A DNA stretch of 64,000 nucleotides from positions 4,817 to 68,816 of the IMG/VR virus record IMGVR_UViG_3300010222_000171, one strand, 5' to 3'. Both the position numbers and the translations under genes were made by a program. The notes under the pieces were generated by a model. The model saw nothing but the letters and a program-made list of their open reading frames with translations. It searched no databases and was not told the DNA's origin. Below, one piece after another: positions 2,225 through 60,178 of this stretch (the first letter of the stretch is position 1; every line of letters starts with the position of its first letter). Source of the stretch: a virus.

Positions 2225-3010
2225 ATGGTAACTCGACAAGACTGCCTCGACGGGCTTCGTGAGGCCGCTGAGATGCTTGGACACCCACCAAGCCGACCCG
2301 AGTATCGCAGGCTCCGCGATGAAAAAGACGTTGGCCCGTCTGTAACAAGCCTCCAGAACTACCTCGGTGGTACCTGGAACGCCGCTAAGGAAGAGGCGGG
2401 CTTGTCGGTTCACGGCGTCGGCGGCGCTCTCGACTTGAACGAAGACTACTTCGCTGAGGTTGAAACGAACGAACAGGCATACTGGCTTGGTATGCTCTAC
2501 GGTGATGGCTCCTTGTGTGAACCTGAAAAGGGGAACCCAATGTTGTCATTGGGACTACAAGAGCGAAATCACGTTGAAGCCTTCGTAGATGCCCTCGATG
2601 CTGAACACTCCGTCACCGAGAGCGGTCCGATATTCAGCGTCAGCATGAGGTGCGAGATTCTGTCACAAGACCTCCGCGGTCACGGTCTTGGTCCTGATAA
2701 GACTCACTCGGGTTCCTTACCTGAGTTGACCAGTGACAGTCTCCGGGCGGCGTTCGTTCGTGGCCTGTTCGATGCTGATGGACACGTCGGGCAACATCAG
2801 AGATTCAACATCACTGGAGCAAGTCGAGGCCGCTTCTTCGCCCTTCTCGGTTGGCTTCCTGTTGAGGGGACAATCGTTGACCGGAAAGATGGGGCTTTCA
2901 CATTGCGAGTCGGTGGTGCTGAGAGATTAGAACAACTCTACGGGTGGCTGTATCCTGAAGGAGTTGAGACACAACCAAAACTCGATAGAAAGTACAACAA
3001 TGTCAGATAG
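2225..3010 (+). CDS. free-standing LAGLIDADG homing endonuclease with N-terminal homing-endonuclease-associated repeat
   Basis: Two LAGLIDADG motifs (WLGMLYGDGSL and FVRGLFDADG). N-terminal TRQDCLDGLREAAEMLG...WNAAKEEAGL repeat domain. Confidence 0.9.
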   Translation: MVTRQDCLDGLREAAEMLGHPPSRPEYRRLRDEKDVGPSVTSLQNYLGGTWNAAKEEAGLSVHGVGGALDLNEDYFAEVETNEQAYWLGMLYGDGSLCEPEKGNPMLSLGLQERNHVEAFVDALDAEHSVTESGPIFSVSMRCEILSQDLRGHGLGPDKTHSGSLPELTSDSLRAAFVRGLFDADGHVGQHQRFNITGASRGRFFALLGWLPVEGTIVDRKDGAFTLRVGGAERLEQLYGWLYPEGVETQPKLDRKYNNVR

Positions 3011-3574: not shown

Positions 3575-5041
3575 ATGGACATAGACAACATTCGCAATCC
3601 AAACCTGTACGAAGTATCACAATTAAGAGAGGATTGGGGCCTTTCCGGTGAAGTCGAAACGCATCTTGTGGTATTCCTTAGCTTCTTCGGCGGAGGATCG
3701 GTTATCATGACGGGCCTTTCCTCCGGTGGGAAGGATGCCGTTGTGTACGCGGCGGAATACTGCGTGCCCGATGATTGGGTGTTCGAGATGCCCACATCCA
3801 TGACTGAATCCTCGTTCTTCGAGATGCACAACAAGATCAACTCCTGTCCGGTACATCGCCACAAGGACATTTCGAACATCAAGAAGGGTTACCTGGAAGA
3901 CACTTGGAAGGCGCACGGAGAGGGTGATCCCATCAGCCGGACGTTCACCAAAGTCACTGGTGAAGAGCGGCGAGAAATTCAGCAAACACTCCACCCCCCT
4001 CATTGCCTGGTGCTGTTCTTGGCGTCGGACAACAAGCAGGTTGATCTCAACGACTATCCCGAGGTCCGGAATCGGGCGCTCGTGGTCGGAATCGATGATT
4101 CGAAAGAACTCACTGAACAAGTGAATACAAGGCAGGCAAAGCAAGAGGCGGGCGTTATCGAGTACAACATTTCTGAGGAACGGACCCAGGAAATTAGGGA
4201 GTACGTCTCCACGATCCCGATGCACACCTACGGTGGATCAAATGGGGTGGGTGGCTTCTTGAACCCGATCATGCCCGCGCTGGACAGGCAGAATCCACTT
4301 CCACAGCACTTCACCGAGGCGCGCCGTGACTTTCCCCGGCTGTCGGACTTCATGAAGAGCGTAACGCTCTTCCACTACGATGATCGGATCGAAGTGCCAC
4401 AGAAAATGTGGGATGGCGATAACCGCATCGACAACGATGTGACGTTGCTGGTGACGCCAGCCGACTCATGGCTCGGGATGCGGATCTTCGGAGAGAAGAT
4501 GGTTCTGTCGGCGCTGAACTTGCAGGACAAAGACTTCCAACTCCTCGATCTGCTCCGGTCGAATTACGGTGAACAATTCGATAAGGGTACGCTCCAGCAG
4601 ATGATGCGGCAACGTGGCTGGAACATCACAAATAGCGACGTGCAATCGTCGTTGAAGAACATGAAGACGAAAGGATACGTTAGGGTGGACAAGTCGGTGA
4701 CACCCTATGAGTGGTCGGCTGCCGAGTTCGCAAAGCAGGTCAATCGGGAGGTGAGCATCGATTGGCCCACGATCATCGAAGATGCTCGTGAATTAGTCCA
4801 CGAACACTATCCAAAGCCGGTGGCGATGGACTACGAGCAGCAAGCTCTCCAGGGCGAGGGGTTGCTCGTGACGCACCCGTTCACTGGTCAGACGGTAAAC
4901 CTGGAGGAAGAAGAGGCAAATGAACTGGAGAAAAAGGTCGAACAGCAAACAGAGAAAGAGAAACAGGTGATGGATCAAGACATCTTCAGCGATGACGGGG
5001 ACGATGATGGGTCTGGTCCGTCCCAGGGCACGCTAACATGA
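3575..5041 (+). CDS. P-loop AAA+/MCM-like ATPase, putative replicative helicase
   Basis: Walker A-like GLSSGGKD, a predicted C-terminal winged-helix segment (KGTLQQMMRQRG...SLKNMKTKGYV), and adjacency to the primase. Confidence 0.65.
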   Translation: MDIDNIRNPNLYEVSQLREDWGLSGEVETHLVVFLSFFGGGSVIMTGLSSGGKDAVVYAAEYCVPDDWVFEMPTSMTESSFFEMHNKINSCPVHRHKDISNIKKGYLEDTWKAHGEGDPISRTFTKVTGEERREIQQTLHPPHCLVLFLASDNKQVDLNDYPEVRNRALVVGIDDSKELTEQVNTRQAKQEAGVIEYNISEERTQEIREYVSTIPMHTYGGSNGVGGFLNPIMPALDRQNPLPQHFTEARRDFPRLSDFMKSVTLFHYDDRIEVPQKMWDGDNRIDNDVTLLVTPADSWLGMRIFGEKMVLSALNLQDKDFQLLDLLRSNYGEQFDKGTLQQMMRQRGWNITNSDVQSSLKNMKTKGYVRVDKSVTPYEWSAAEFAKQVNREVSIDWPTIIEDARELVHEHYPKPVAMDYEQQALQGEGLLVTHPFTGQTVNLEEEEANELEKKVEQQTEKEKQVMDQDIFSDDGDDDGSGPSQGTLT

Positions 5042-55372: not shown

Positions 55373-58193
55373 AAAAATACAGAAACTCGCAACGGTCGAA
55401 CAGGACTCAGATATTGTACAAGAAGATGATTGGAGCGAAGCCCCGGTTATCAATAACACTGGGAACGCAACTGTTCGTGACTTCGATGCAGCAAGCGAAG
55501 ATCATCCCCTGGTCCAGTATGCCGGAGAGAAGGCACGGAAGACGGACATCTCCGGTGGTGGAGAGTTCGTTTCCGAAGAAATCTACCAGGGCGACGAAGC
55601 GTTCCCAAGAGAGTGGCTACAGAATCACGAAACGGCCTGCATCCGGCGCTGTAAGATGGTCGTTTCACTAAGTGACGAGTATCCCGACGATTGGCTGACT
55701 CAGACCGTCCTCATGGACCCCGAAACGGGTGAGACGGTCGAAGACCCCGAAGATGTAGATGGCAATGCGGCAGCGATGGAAGTACCCCGCCCAATGAACG
55801 AGATCATCGAGGCTGCCCGAAGCCTCGGCTACGATCCGACGATCACTTGGGACGTGTATCTTGACGAGCGGAAAATCATTACCGAAGACAACGGGATCGG
55901 AATGACTCCCAGGGAATTTTGGGAAGTGTTCAAGTCCCCCTTCAGCTCCGGTTCTGGTGTGGATTCTGAAACTGGGGGGAACTTCGGAATCGGCTCTAAC
56001 TCCGTCGAGAAGGCTCATGGAGAAGACGGTGCTGCGAAGGTCACGACGAAAACCCCCCGGCCCGGAAACCACGAAGGTTATCAGGCATATTCATACCGGG
56101 GAGGGGCAACGGCAATTAATGGCGAAGTCCCTGATGGGTTCCACGGAACCCGTTTCGAGATTCCCGTTCGTGAAGGGTTCGACCTGTCCAAGATGCAGCA
56201 TTGGATAGAAAAGTACACCGACAAGCTCCGCGTTCCGGTGTTGTATCGAGAACACGATGCTGGTTCAACGCCGGTCGAAGAAGAATACGAAGAAACGGTT
56301 TTCGTTAAAGACTTCGATGATCCGCCTATTGTCATCGAACGGCCCGGCGAGTTCAGCTTAGTTGCCGGCCCTGATGTGTGTCCCCGAACCAGCTTCCGTG
56401 AACCGGACAATACTAATACCTATTTGGTGTCAATGGAGATTGACCGAAACACGAAGGCGTCCATCTCGACGATGTACGATGTCGTGATCCAGATTCACGA
56501 CGAACAAGGCCGGATCGTGGCAGGCCCTCATCGGGGCTACCATTCCCATAACGGCAAGGTCTACAAGACAGGACAGAACGAAAAACTACTCGACGATCTC
56601 CACGAAGATGACGTTGTATCGCCACAGCCTACTGGAGATCGTGACAGGCTGAAGAAAACCGACGAAAGCTACGACTTTTTCAATTATATTGAAAAGATCG
56701 TCAAGTCGGAAGAGATCAATCAGGTATCTCATGTTGCGGATCGTATGAAGGATGCTGACCACCCCGGCGATGCGATTCGGGGCGAAAAGGGTGACTGGGA
56801 CCTGTTCAGAAAGACCATTAGTGAGAATGGACCAAGACACGCCACTGACCAAAGGAATAGGTTTGGGAATTTTCTAAATGACAGAGATGAGTTCCCCGAC
56901 TTTACTGATAGTGAAATTGATAAAATGTTTTGCCTGTTCGATGAGTTCGAACACTGCTATCAGGGACCCGGTAGTTCCAATCGGAAACGGGGGAGAGAAG
57001 AAAGGACTATTGGTTATATCTTGTCAAGCCTCGATCCCGACGCGATTTACATGGCCGCTTCTACTGGTGGCAACTTTAGTGATAGGTTCCGGGTTATCGA
57101 AAACACATACGATAACCCCGAAGTGGTCGTCATTAACACCGCCAGCAACTACGACACTTACGCCGAAAACTTCGGCTTCAAAGTGCTAAAAGAAGTCCCA
57201 GTGACCCAACCCGATGAGGGCGAGGACCATGACTACAATGTTACAGATAATATTCACGAACGTCATGTGAATAAGGGAAGTAGCTACCAATCAAAGCCTG
57301 ACAGTGTTCTGGATCGGGCACTGAAAATTAGAAACAGTGCCGATAACACGAGTATCGACCTTCGACTTAGCATTGCTGATGCTCAGGAACGGCTGGAAAA
57401 TTATAGTAGCTTCAGCGGTGCTAATTCAAAGAAACTCGTCCTGTTCCCGAGAACTGCTGACGAGAACATCAGCGACCACTACGGAATGGCAAAGTACGCG
57501 GCCATCGCTTCGGTGAACAAGAAAGAGTACGACCAGTTGGCTCACTATGACAATGTAATGACGTACCAGGAGTTCAAAGAGTGGTCACGGTCGGCGCTGA
57601 TTGCCACTACTGACGGGGTAATGACGCCGAAAAAGCTTGTCGAGGATGATCGGATGGTAGTCCTTCTGTACCGGAGGCGTTGTCGGAGTGGCCCCATCGA
57701 GAAAGATGAAGCTCGGTTCCTAATGGACGAGAAAGAAGACCTTCGGAACCTTTACTTGGAAGATATTCGAGATCAAGTACACTGGGCTGATCATCTCGAC
57801 GGCTACGATGGTGGTTGGGACGGCGACGACCGAGGCAACGTTGACGATGCCGATAAGCCCGATATGTTGTTAGCTGTAGCTGGTCCGAAGGTGCTGCGCC
57901 GTGCACACTGGGCTATCCATCAGTTGGACATATCCCGCCGAAGTATCGAAGGTCTTCGGTTGGGGAGAAATCGTATAAAAGAATTACCGATCACGTGGGG
58001 CACTCTCGATGGGTCCCAAAGTAAGTACAAGCTCATGGTTGACACCCCGAACTGGGACAACGACAGTGAAATTTACGAGATGATCCCGACGAACCGCGAC
58101 AAGTTCAAGGCTCAGATGTATTTGGCATTCCATGACATGGGCATCGATCCATCGAACTACGAGAACGAAGAGCTTCGAGAGATGTGTTCCTAA
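55365..58193 (+). CDS. large GHKL (Hsp90/MORC-like) ATPase protein, rIIA-like
   Basis: REWLQN, EDNGIGM, GNFGIG and GTRF GHKL motifs in the N-terminal third. Confidence 0.85.
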   Translation: MSEKIQKLATVEQDSDIVQEDDWSEAPVINNTGNATVRDFDAASEDHPLVQYAGEKARKTDISGGGEFVSEEIYQGDEAFPREWLQNHETACIRRCKMVVSLSDEYPDDWLTQTVLMDPETGETVEDPEDVDGNAAAMEVPRPMNEIIEAARSLGYDPTITWDVYLDERKIITEDNGIGMTPREFWEVFKSPFSSGSGVDSETGGNFGIGSNSVEKAHGEDGAAKVTTKTPRPGNHEGYQAYSYRGGATAINGEVPDGFHGTRFEIPVREGFDLSKMQHWIEKYTDKLRVPVLYREHDAGSTPVEEEYEETVFVKDFDDPPIVIERPGEFSLVAGPDVCPRTSFREPDNTNTYLVSMEIDRNTKASISTMYDVVIQIHDEQGRIVAGPHRGYHSHNGKVYKTGQNEKLLDDLHEDDVVSPQPTGDRDRLKKTDESYDFFNYIEKIVKSEEINQVSHVADRMKDADHPGDAIRGEKGDWDLFRKTISENGPRHATDQRNRFGNFLNDRDEFPDFTDSEIDKMFCLFDEFEHCYQGPGSSNRKRGREERTIGYILSSLDPDAIYMAASTGGNFSDRFRVIENTYDNPEVVVINTASNYDTYAENFGFKVLKEVPVTQPDEGEDHDYNVTDNIHERHVNKGSSYQSKPDSVLDRALKIRNSADNTSIDLRLSIADAQERLENYSSFSGANSKKLVLFPRTADENISDHYGMAKYAAIASVNKKEYDQLAHYDNVMTYQEFKEWSRSALIATTDGVMTPKKLVEDDRMVVLLYRRRCRSGPIEKDEARFLMDEKEDLRNLYLEDIRDQVHWADHLDGYDGGWDGDDRGNVDDADKPDMLLAVAGPKVLRRAHWAIHQLDISRRSIEGLRLGRNRIKELPITWGTLDGSQSKYKLMVDTPNWDNDSEIYEMIPTNRDKFKAQMYLAFHDMGIDPSNYENEELREMCS

Positions 58194-58217: not shown

Positions 58218-58337
58218 ATGAAAATAGTCTCACTACCACCGGCAACTGATCGGGGACCGAACCCTCACGAACGAATCGATTCTGACAATTACATGGATCT
58301 CACAGAACTGGAGGAAACAGACAATGGAGATACTTGA
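58218..58337 (+). CDS. 39-aa microprotein
   Basis: Short acidic ORF between the GHKL gene and the next gene. Confidence 0.4.
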   Translation: MKIVSLPPATDRGPNPHERIDSDNYMDLTELEETDNGDT

Positions 58338-59007
58338 GGAAAATAACACCAATTTCCTGGTACTGACCGACGACGGAAGTACAACGACGAAAACGAAATC
58401 CAGCAATCTGAACCAGCTACTATTCGGCTATGGCTTGTTCGATCTGCTCCAAGAAGGGAGTGAAATCTGGACACAAGAAACCGATAAGGGGGTGTTGCGG
58501 GTTATCCCTGGTAACGATGCCAGGGAGTACACCATCGATCCACCAAGCGTCCCGAATTTAGTTCTCGGAGCGCACCGTAAGACCGATCTCGTAGATGCGC
58601 TGATGGAAGCCTACGAAGCTGAAGGACGGGTAGACCCACAACCGATCATGAACCTCTACGAAGAAGTTCGTGATGGGATGGTCCGTGAAGAAGTGCTGGA
58701 CCCTTTCCACCCCCTTATCGGTTCCAATGTTTCGGTTCGAGAAAATGGCTGGTTCATCAACGGCCATCTCCTACTGACATACGAAGGCGAGTTCTATCAC
58801 TCCGAACACAAAAGTCGGAATCGATCAGGGTCAGTGATCGGAACCGGAACGTCGAACAAGGCCTACGAACAGGCAGTCTCCGAACCAGATGGCGAAATTT
58901 CTCGGTCGATCACTATTGACGGAGAACAGCGACGGCTCACGAACAGTGAGGTTGAGTTCATCACGAAGGCGCTGTGGGCAGTTGAAAATACTCCAGATCG
59001 GCGGTAA
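58324..59007 (+). CDS. hypothetical protein, possible rIIB-like partner
   Basis: GGAGG ribosome-binding site; lies just downstream of the GHKL gene. Confidence 0.7.
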   Translation: MEILEENNTNFLVLTDDGSTTTKTKSSNLNQLLFGYGLFDLLQEGSEIWTQETDKGVLRVIPGNDAREYTIDPPSVPNLVLGAHRKTDLVDALMEAYEAEGRVDPQPIMNLYEEVRDGMVREEVLDPFHPLIGSNVSVRENGWFINGHLLLTYEGEFYHSEHKSRNRSGSVIGTGTSNKAYEQAVSEPDGEISRSITIDGEQRRLTNSEVEFITKALWAVENTPDRR

Positions 59008-59014
59008 GTCATAA

Positions 59015-59039
59015 GATTTAACTTCTCACATCCCGAGTC
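59015..59039 (+). promoter_or_regulatory. dyad promoter motif copy
   Basis: GATTTAA-N11-CCGAGTC. Confidence 0.65.
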
Positions 59040-59059
59040 TTAGGATGAAAAGGCGGTTT

Positions 59060-59100
59060 TGTCCAAGTCGGCGTAGAGGGTTCGATTCCCTCTTGGACAT
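59060..59100 (+). ncRNA. tRNA-like minihelix (7-bp acceptor-like stem plus 5-bp T arm)
   Basis: TGTCCAA-gtcggcgta-GAGGG-TTCGATT-CCCTC-TTGGACA with perfect pairing. Confidence 0.7.
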
Positions 59101-59146
59101 TTAAGCACCTCTCGCGGTGCAATGATACAAGTAGCGGGACACGACC

Positions 59147-60064
59147 ATGATCTACTACGTAGTAGTTGACCGACACGGGGATGAAATAGCCCGGTACGAA
59201 ACGGAATATGGGGCCGCGAACCACATCAAAGATGTTGGGTTTGGCTCCCATCACCTCCACGTCAAGGAGGTTGAACAGGACGACGAAACAGCCGACGATT
59301 CTCAGACCACCATGAGCAACTACGACTTCATCCAAACCGACGACGAAGAGGACGACAACCAAGACAGCGACAGCTTCCAGTCGCAGACCTTCGACTGGGG
59401 CTACGGCGAACACAGCACGGCATCGGGCGACGATCTCGATGTGTTGGGTGGGCAAATTCGGGCCACGATGGACGAACTCGATGAGGGGGTGGACGGGGAG
59501 ATGGTCGCCGTTCTCGAAGACGCCCAGGAGCTTGTCGGGTCCGTTTCGATCAACGACTTCGAGTGCTCCCACCCTGACTGTGGGCTGAGTCACGGTCACG
59601 GCCCCAACAAGCACGACATTCGGAACAGTGTGAACAGTTCGGGGATCGAGGGCTTCAACATCACTGACGAGTTCGCTGACCAAATGGAGTTCGTTGCGAA
59701 CTGCCACTGTGGAGCAAACGAAGCGGGGATGCTGGTTCAGTTCTTCCACTACTTCAACATCCCAATGTTCTCCGACCAAGAAGAGTTCGAAGGGGTGCTG
59801 GAGATGGACGCCGACGTAGTGACGGACATCTACCGGGAAGTCAACGAGAACGGCGTCTCGGTAGCTGCCGCTGTCGCTCGGGTCGCCGTGCAGCGCAGCG
59901 TAGCCGAATCAGAGATCGCTCCCGCTGGCCTTTGGGAAGACCTGGGGGCGTTCATCGAGCGCCGACAGCACGTTGAGGGAGGCGCAAACAGCGCCCCCAT
60001 CGGTCAGGAAACCCAGTCGGTGATCGATTCCCACCGGGAAGCCATCGAAGCTGTGATCCAGTAG
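59147..60064 (+). CDS. acidic hypothetical protein with Cys/His metal-binding motifs
   Basis: CSHPDCGLSHGH and CHCG. Confidence 0.8.
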   Translation: MIYYVVVDRHGDEIARYETEYGAANHIKDVGFGSHHLHVKEVEQDDETADDSQTTMSNYDFIQTDDEEDDNQDSDSFQSQTFDWGYGEHSTASGDDLDVLGGQIRATMDELDEGVDGEMVAVLEDAQELVGSVSINDFECSHPDCGLSHGHGPNKHDIRNSVNSSGIEGFNITDEFADQMEFVANCHCGANEAGMLVQFFHYFNIPMFSDQEEFEGVLEMDADVVTDIYREVNENGVSVAAAVARVAVQRSVAESEIAPAGLWEDLGAFIERRQHVEGGANSAPIGQETQSVIDSHREAIEAVIQ

Positions 60065-60108: not shown

Positions 60109-60178
60109 GGGCGAAACGCCGGGGATTCCCGGCGTCGGGAGCGAGATGGTCGCCGTTCCCCTGATGCTGCCCATGACT
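60109..60178 (+). ncRNA. type II hammerhead ribozyme C
   Basis: GGGC GAAA CGCCGGG-gatt-CCCGGCG TC GGGAGCG-loop-CGTTCCC CTGATGC T GCCC. Pseudoknot GGTCG/TGACT. Confidence 0.75.

Follow-up and report, generated by a model that had tools for sequence, protein, structure and literature searches.

Results

A minihelix resembling the top half of tRNA lies in a viral mRNA leader

Downstream of a promoter of a haloarchaeal virus, we found a 40-nt element (59060–59099) that folds like the acceptor and T arms of a tRNA joined directly to each other. Its position is given within the window, the whole stretch of 64,000 nt of viral DNA that was analysed. The earlier note had described this one element; it proved to belong to a multi-copy family in related viruses, with strong covariation between its paired strands and with the architecture of the t-element that precedes 5S rRNA in the hosts. 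Weighing the analyses together, we give somewhat better than an even chance to the reading that the element is a processing signal for host enzymes, a viral t-element whose predicted cleavage would trim the leader and leave a hairpin-capped mRNA.

The source record is a 72-kb haloarchaeal myovirus, labelled as a provirus in IMG/VR, and the genes encoded by the virus include those for a terminase and a tail sheath. Proteins of the window are approximately 35–43% identical to proteins of HSTV-2, HRTV-7, HRTV-11, and HCTV-6, of the family Hafunaviridae. The element is intergenic, with a 227-aa gene (58324–59007) upstream and a 305-aa gene (59147–60064) downstream; the latter starts with the ATG at 59147 and belongs to phrog_30610, which has no assigned function. 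A comparison of the region with phages by megablast and blastn gave no match, and IMG/VR scans with three flanking proteins, one by one, returned no close relatives. A look-up of public sequencing runs listed no RNA data set containing the 2-kb stretch or the single gene. Elsewhere in the record, two intact viral tRNA genes are present at contig positions 4029–4178, about 640–790 nt upstream of the window start, namely tRNA-Thr(TGT) and tRNA-Ala(TGC, with G3:U70), 2 nt apart according to the ARAGORN coordinates. At positions 2225–3010 (+) of the window there is a homing-endonuclease-like gene that stands alone and matches Pfam HNH_repeat and LAGLIDADG_3. The features of the leader are as follows.

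59013–59042, + strand: promoter of the HF2 class I intergenic-repeat type, from a column-for-column alignment with IR1c, IR2, IR4, and IR6
59043–59059, + strand: predicted start G59043 and 17-nt 5′ leader, from HF2 homology and MAFFT alignment
59060–59066, + strand: acceptor-like stem, 5′ strand TGTCCAA, from direct reading, Rfam alignment, and folding
59067–59075, + strand: linker GTCGGCGTA, 9 nt, with GG at 59070–71
59076–59092, + strand: T arm, in which GAGGG (59076–59080) pairs with CCCTC (59088–59092) around the loop TTCGATT (59081–59087)
59093–59100, + strand: acceptor-like stem, 3′ strand TTGGACA (59093–59099), followed by U59100 in the discriminator position
59105–59120, + strand: GC hairpin GCACC-TCTCGC-GGTGC, 5 nt past the helix, found by RNAalifold with compensatory changes
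59136–59149, + strand: conserved GGGACACGACC motif, immediately preceding the start codon (ATG, 59147) of the 305-aa gene

All 12 pairs of the element are Watson–Crick, seven in the acceptor-like stem and five in the T stem, and the stems, the TTCGATT loop, and the 9-nt linker containing GG match exactly what the earlier note had described. On the 3′ side one helix runs directly into the other, on the 5′ side they are bridged by GTCGGCGTA, and within GGTTCGATTCC (59079–59089) lies a canonical 7-nt T loop, UUCGAUU, with G–C closing pairs. The element contains neither a D arm nor an anticodon arm, as had also been claimed: the Rfam tRNA model (RF00005) aligned with it from end to end with both arms deleted, at 14.5 bits (E = 3.7 in 401 nt). 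An actual tRNA gene was considered and rejected, given that this score is below the gathering score of 29, that there is no full cloverleaf, and that ARAGORN calls no tRNA in the window. The linker GG is a candidate stand-in for the D-loop G18–G19, which would make a tertiary contact with the T loop.

When folded in isolation, the element adopted the described structure at −15.2 kcal/mol (z = −2.66). A descriptor was then applied that combined a TTCRAYY T loop, a T stem of at least 5 bp, an acceptor stem of at least 5 bp stacked on it without a gap, at least 12 Watson–Crick pairs, and a linker of 5–16 nt. It matched this single site in the window, and 1000 dinucleotide shuffles of the window yielded no match. 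Over its full length the leader has no exceptional stability (z = −0.85), and its minimum-energy fold replaces the acceptor stem by a pairing of UGUCC with GGACA near the AUG (59055–59064 with 59137–59146, GGUU.UGUCC with GGACA.CGACC). Because the extension of this long-range pairing is not conserved in the relatives L006 and L008, it is probably incidental.

Promoter, predicted start site, and layout of the leader

The promoter carries a TATA-like TTTAA at 59017–59021 and a GAGTCTTA motif (the “dyad”) directly before the start site, and about 10 similar promoter copies occur in this genome. Experiments on the class I repeats of HF2 have measured their activity as promoters and mapped where transcription begins, namely at the G of TTAG, which lies 26 nt beyond the initial base of the TATA motif (PMC8707807). 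With the same spacing and motif, the start here is predicted at G59043 by homology with these repeats. The element begins 17 nt past this predicted start and 18 nt past the end of the dyad promoter, in agreement with the earlier estimate of about 20 nt.

Most relatives have an acceptor-like stem (GGATG, GGGTG, or GAGTG) whose initial base coincides with the predicted first base of the RNA. MAFFT alignment revealed a 17-nt insertion in the window lineage compared with L010, L012, L015, L016, and L018. By this alignment, GGATGAAAAGGCGG is a vestige of the ancestral 5′ acceptor strand and linker seen in the relatives, and the insertion has moved a newly formed perfect helix downstream. That a full helix was rebuilt after the disruption argues for selection on the fold.

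The layout around the element is constant. A promoter with TAAGACTTAAC and ...AGTCTTAG is followed by the minihelix, by 3–7 nt, by a GC hairpin, and by approximately 20 nt ending in GGGACACAACC, after which comes the ATG. The GC hairpin is found 3–7 nt after every viral copy, and the one at 59105–59120 appears in the leader's centroid fold. Regarding the last motif, GGGACACAACC-like sequences stand 0–12 nt before the start codons of leader-module genes (59136–59146 in the window, and many in relatives) and are also present in HSTV-2, the HF2 form being GTGACACCG; they do not resemble a Shine–Dalgarno sequence.

One experimentally mapped end bears on the leader of HF2. The 5′ end T-4384 is located within the linker of the HF2 copy at 4375–4414 and 33 nt from the TATA-like motif, a greater distance than the 26 nt of the class I repeats; it is the only mapped 5′ end inside any copy, and none was reported at the expected tRNase Z site (PMC8707807). 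T-4384 may mark a genuine start, in which case the promoter-initiated RNA of HF2 would be without the 5′ acceptor strand, or it may be an end produced by processing.

The element belongs to a covarying family of viral leaders

To place the element in an evolutionary context, relatives were collected from a protein database through homology of the downstream protein and not through the RNA, so that the sample is unbiased as to structure. The element was present in every complete leader of the same gene among these relatives, with differing stem sequences. Close relatives (80–96% protein identity) share the helix of the window copy, L006 having one change in the linker, while in distant relatives (39–56% protein identity) the loop and the GG linker are kept and the stems are entirely different. 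Acceptor stems among the latter include GGATG/CATCC, GAGTG/CACTC, AGGGTA/TACCCT, CTCGAT/GTCGAG, and GCCTG/CAGGT, and T stems include GAGTGG/CCACTC, GGGTGG/CCACCC, GAAGGG/CCCTTC, and CGATGG/CCATCG. Across the relatives, stacks range from 5+6 to 8+5 bp (11–13 bp overall), compared with 7+5 bp for the copy at 59060–59099.

A gapless alignment of ten copies was 99.1% paired by cells, and nine of the 11 pairs had changed on both sides. From those ten viral copies only, with the window lineage left out, the covariance model R1 was built, and the window copy then scored 33 bits against it (E = 4.7e-6). Among the 19 copies that R1 collected, 99.5% of cells were paired and double changes were seen in 10 of 11 pairs; none of 500 shuffles reached the observed score, and slid controls were 49–62% paired. 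RNAalifold, run on a plain MAFFT alignment of whole leaders, recovered the same two helices unaided together with the downstream GC hairpin. Eight G·U wobble cells are valid on the + (mRNA) strand only and would be A·C mismatches on the other strand, which indicates that the selected fold is that of the sense RNA. The linker contains GG in all 19 aligned viral copies, and the loop is TTCGAYT in nearly every copy, the exceptions being TTCGAGT in one HSTV-2 copy and TTCGATC in L016b.

Further copies were found in other leaders (L010 6624, L013 2723, L015 4651, L016 5581, and L018 4934). HF2 carries two, at 2906–2944 and 4375–4414, as does a complete 73-kb IMG/VR genome, and HSTV-2, HRTV-11, and HCTV-6 each have one clear copy and one partial match comprising the T arm only. 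A scan of genomes for the linker and T-arm pattern returned mostly bacterial sites that matched the model poorly, and a single further viral contig with a true member of the family. A Pfam scan of the genes downstream of six copies identified no family, and the approximately 440-aa gene that bears the second copy in relatives was not found in this genome; no gene-specific link emerged.

Two other structures were noted in HSTV-2 (L023) on the minus strand, at 57226–57180 and 54329–54287. They have stacked helices in the same layout, with the loop TTCACGA and 14-nt linkers containing TAAGAC, and they stand directly after stop codons with no AT-rich promoter. The R1 search did not detect these two elements, which may be a divergent subclass and are uncertain relatives.

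The viral element shares its architecture with the t-element before host 5S rRNA

Tested on cellular genomes, the viral model R1 matched, from end to end, an element ending 3 nt before 5S rRNA in three haloarchaeal genomes, with 26–31 bits (E about 1e-6 on the loci); in Natrinema mahii two 5S-leader copies were matched, at 26.5 and 31 bits. The other two of these three genomes are Halobacteria that a genome scan had turned up. The whole-genome R1 scan of 41 Halobacteria, in which 150 candidates per genome were scored, was too insensitive and missed known copies. Targeted inspection upstream of 5S rRNA in the 29 sampled Halobacteria with upstream sequence revealed a full GGTTC(G/A)AnTCC T arm directly before 5S rRNA in 26, a slightly shorter one in one, and degraded ones in two. 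The minimal 39-nt form (5/10/6/7/6/5), which is the commonest viral layout, occurs in about half of the sampled Halobacteria. In the cellular alignment, these 5S elements have a 5+6 bp stack, GG in the linker, and the loop TTCGAT(T/C).

The published Haloferax primer itele1 (PMC4326828) matches the 5S-leader element in L094, which connects these sequences with the t-element literature. The earlier note had stated that tRNase Z of Haloferax cleaves a tRNA-like structure in the 5S leader, and PMC4326828 agrees: there and in PMC4946936, the t-element before 5S rRNA is described as cut by tRNase Z to give the 5′ end of 5S rRNA, and as a substrate of both RNase P and tRNase Z in vivo in Haloferax. 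The haloarchaeal t-element (Haloferax volcanii; Holzle et al. 2008, 2012, cited through PMC4326828) and the viral element share an acceptor-like stem of 5–7 bp stacked on a T stem of 5–6 bp. Both also have the loop UUCGAUU and a linker of 9–10 nt with GG, both are without D or anticodon arms, and both are followed after 3–7 nt by a stable helix, which is 5S rRNA in the one case and the hairpin in the other.

The two differ in their setting and in the freedom of their stems. Cellular t-elements stand in the rRNA operon before 5S rRNA and have a near-invariant CCGAY/RUCGG stem, whereas the viral elements, as putative substrates, stand in promoter-adjacent mRNA leaders, have highly variable stems, and are followed by a hairpin and then by a coding sequence. 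Holzle et al. 2012 (Biochimie) reportedly saw no cleavage in vitro of further tRNA-like elements predicted in Haloferax. On the likeness in sequence and fold, the viral element and the 5S t-element would belong to the same structural class and probably share a mode of action. In the reverse test, which is weak, the model R2, built from cellular 5S t-elements and dominated by their invariant CCGAY/RUCGG stem, saw no more of the window copy than its T arm (15.1 bits, E = 0.7), and we therefore make no claim of common descent with the host element.

A second, degenerate copy is present in the window.

539–577, + strand: degenerate second copy (R1, 17.2 bits, E = 0.15; R2, 22.1 bits, E = 0.013)

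Thus, the window virus has one intact and one degenerate copy. The latter has a 5-bp acceptor stem with one G·U pair and a 4-bp T stem with a G·A mismatch, keeps the GGTTCGATTCC core, and has an ATTGGT linker nearer to the host 5S element than to the viral consensus. Downstream of it comes the promoter of gene 705–1793, and it overlaps a minus-strand promoter copy near 615. This copy may represent a capture from the host, or a 3′ processing signal for an upstream transcript containing tRNAs. Within a cellular genome, a good t-element with 7+6 bp, GG in its linker, and the loop TTCGATT was observed at L079 1499–1540 (Halobacteria genome G015), between two protein-coding genes and not beside rRNA; given this location, cellular mRNA-associated t-elements may exist.

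Hammerhead-like elements and true tRNAs occupy the equivalent position after related promoters

Directly past the 305-aa gene, a few nucleotides after a sibling promoter (about 60076), the Rfam model Hammerhead_II (RF02276) matched 60109–60175 (+) at 31.1 bits (E = 0.025), which is below its gathering score of 37. A Hammerhead_II match is found at the same place in L006 (3960–4026) and L008 (3243–3309), and HF2 has an annotated type II hammerhead before its helicase gene. The hammerheads that the earlier note had placed at sibling promoters thus have some support from this site (with its sub-gathering score), from two relatives, and from the HF2 annotation. In HF2, the order IR2, tRNA-Arg, CDS and the order IR3, tRNA-Asn, tRNA-Tyr, CDS place genuine tRNA genes between class I promoters and coding sequences. 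A tRNA, a tRNA mimic, or a ribozyme in this one position would in each case sever the 5′ part of the transcript. HF2 transcripts reach up to 35 kb by RT-PCR, compared with 0.5–9 kb on Northern blots, for which the authors invoked processing.

The HF2 tRNA genes have the same position relative to the same type of promoter, and their excision necessarily cuts the mRNA; they are complete, decodable, and detected by tRNA finders, whereas the viral element has no anticodon arm and cannot decode. Halovirus type II hammerheads occupy the equivalent slot after sibling promoters and would also remove the 5′ end of the transcript, but they are self-cleaving RNAs of unrelated fold that use no protein enzyme, and the match in the window remains sub-gathering.

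More distant parallels exist outside the archaea. Plant mitochondrial mRNA t-elements and the mascRNA of MALAT1/MEN-beta are likewise tRNA mimics inside longer transcripts; most of them keep the whole cloverleaf or nearly so and belong to eukaryotic or organellar transcripts, in contrast to the top half only, beside a promoter, in an archaeal virus. The tRNA-like structures of plant RNA viruses such as TYMV also represent viral mimicry of the acceptor/T half and elbow. They differ in being aminoacylated pseudoknots at the 3′ end of RNA genomes, whereas the present element belongs to the leader of a DNA virus and has no CCA and no identity elements. In general, embedded tRNA mimics bring RNase P and/or RNase Z to a transcript, whose ends are defined in this way (PMC4810234).

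Discussion

The earlier suggestion that the virus uses host tRNA-processing enzymes on this leader appears well motivated and is partly supported, since a covarying family shares the architecture of the haloarchaeal 5S-leader t-element. According to the proposed mechanism, transcription would begin at the predicted G59043 and the minihelix would fold in the mRNA leader, its linker GG possibly docking on the T loop as G18–G19 do in tRNA. Host tRNase Z would cut just after U59100, a site placed by the rules known for tRNase Z, and host RNase P just before U59060, the two cuts together releasing a minihelix of about 41 nt. The new 5′ end of the trimmed mRNA would lie 4 nt ahead of the GC hairpin at 59105–59120, with GGGACACGACC-ATG downstream, and this hairpin may shield the new 5′-monophosphate end. 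Read-through transcripts arriving from upstream would be trimmed to the same defined end as promoter-initiated ones, and sibling-promoter hammerheads and the post-promoter tRNA genes of HF2 would give an equivalent outcome. Several observations speak against this reading: a long-range pairing competes with the acceptor stem in the window leader, R2 sees only a T arm, the HF2 end T-4384 fits poorly, and further predicted elements of Haloferax were reportedly not cut.

The idea of RNase P and tRNase Z as joint cutters, which the earlier note had put forward, needs narrowing: the helix seems to begin at the transcription start in most relatives, so RNase P would be superfluous there. A wider generalisation is possible, though we regard it as doubtful: the early and middle promoters of hafunaviruses would be “insulator cassettes” composed of a promoter, a swappable RNA-cutting module, a protective hairpin, and a fixed translation-start motif. 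The module, at or just after +1, may be a hammerhead, a real tRNA, or a tRNA top half that host tRNase Z and RNase P would cut, and such cassettes may give every message the same processed 5′ end wherever transcription began. On this view, for copies with the helix at +1, the released 5′-triphosphate minihelix of about 40 nt might be a functional small RNA, for example one receiving CCA.

Several other readings of the element were weighed against cleavage. The minihelix could stay on the mRNA as an uncleaved 5′-terminal tRNA mimic, protective or promoting translation, for example by blocking 5′-to-3′ decay or by binding the ribosome or a host factor that recognises the tRNA elbow. With the helix at the predicted +1 in most relatives, the 5′-triphosphate end would indeed be base-paired; HF2 class I leaders without a T arm also open with a helix that pairs their GAGUG 5′ end, the only mapped HF2 5′ end belongs to an RNA that still has the T arm (PMC8707807), and many factors recognise the tRNA elbow (PMC4810234). 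However, a plain hairpin would suffice for protection, while the T-loop sequence, the GG linker, and the 11–13-bp stack are kept exactly as in a proven tRNase Z substrate. A separate hairpin always stands just downstream, which fits a cut between the two, and the helix of the window lineage is not at the 5′ end at all, so we consider this reading unlikely. It is quite improbable that the sequence acts primarily at the DNA level, as an initiator region or a regulator binding site with the RNA fold secondary, even though the 5′ acceptor strand overlaps the conserved start-site region in most relatives, mutation of that region (the gamma motif) abolishes the promoter activity of HF2 IR4 (PMC8707807), and the module always travels with a promoter. 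Compensatory changes tie the 5′ strand to a partner 30 nt downstream, the wobble pairs function on the sense strand only, and the same fold is found before cellular 5S rRNA; moreover, HSTV-2 and L015 have copies without an adjacent AT-rich promoter, and in the window a perfect helix was rebuilt 17 nt away from the start site.

Viral tRNA mimics that hijack tRNA-binding factors are known, and the tRNA genes and RtcB RNA ligase gene of HF2, together with the two tRNA genes here, would be compatible with a conflict over tRNA, in which the minihelix, released or embedded, could be a decoy that titrates a host tRNA-binding enzyme or a defence nuclease acting on tRNA acceptor ends or elbows. With only one or two copies in each genome, set in mRNA leaders at a fixed position relative to a hairpin and a start codon, the elements point instead to a role in cis, and the lack of an anticodon arm excludes the anticodon nucleases that the earlier note had in mind; we therefore hold the decoy to be very improbable. 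Hardly credible at all is a relic, whether of a tRNA gene that decayed or of an integration (att) site, or functionless chance complementarity. These viruses do carry tRNA genes and tRNA-derived attP sites, and the Rfam score alone is not significant, but the motif was absent from all 1000 shuffles and covaries across relatives whose downstream protein is only 35–56% identical, and its multiple copies always lie on the coding strand. A search of 185,579 species genomes and of IMG/VR gave no exact match to the 24-nt T arm plus 3′ strand, for which reason the att-site and host-copy readings were rejected; the multi-copy, coding-strand leader positions in relatives speak against them as well. By the comparative sequence data, the relic or chance reading appears effectively refuted.

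Cleavage of the leader by host enzymes, the reading that we favour, would extend what has been written about these repeats. The literature on the HF2 repeats describes them as promoters, and its “tRNA-like sequences” are tRNAscan-type genes or attP only and are said to need further study; in the searchable literature on these viruses we found no description of the top-half leader family. If the elements are cut, they would represent the first demonstration of t-elements in an archaeal virus and of their use on archaeal mRNAs instead of rRNA, and their cutting would explain how very long primary transcripts of the HF type become the shorter RNAs of Northern blots. Cultured carriers (HF2, HSTV-2, and relatives), together with the existing host enzymes and t-element tools of Haloferax, make the idea directly testable, and the 39–40-nt module could enlarge the t-element toolbox for haloarchaeal genetics. 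The occurrence of tRNA mimics, true tRNAs, and hammerheads in one post-promoter slot suggests that the trimming of 5′ ends is a principle by which this virus family organises its gene expression.
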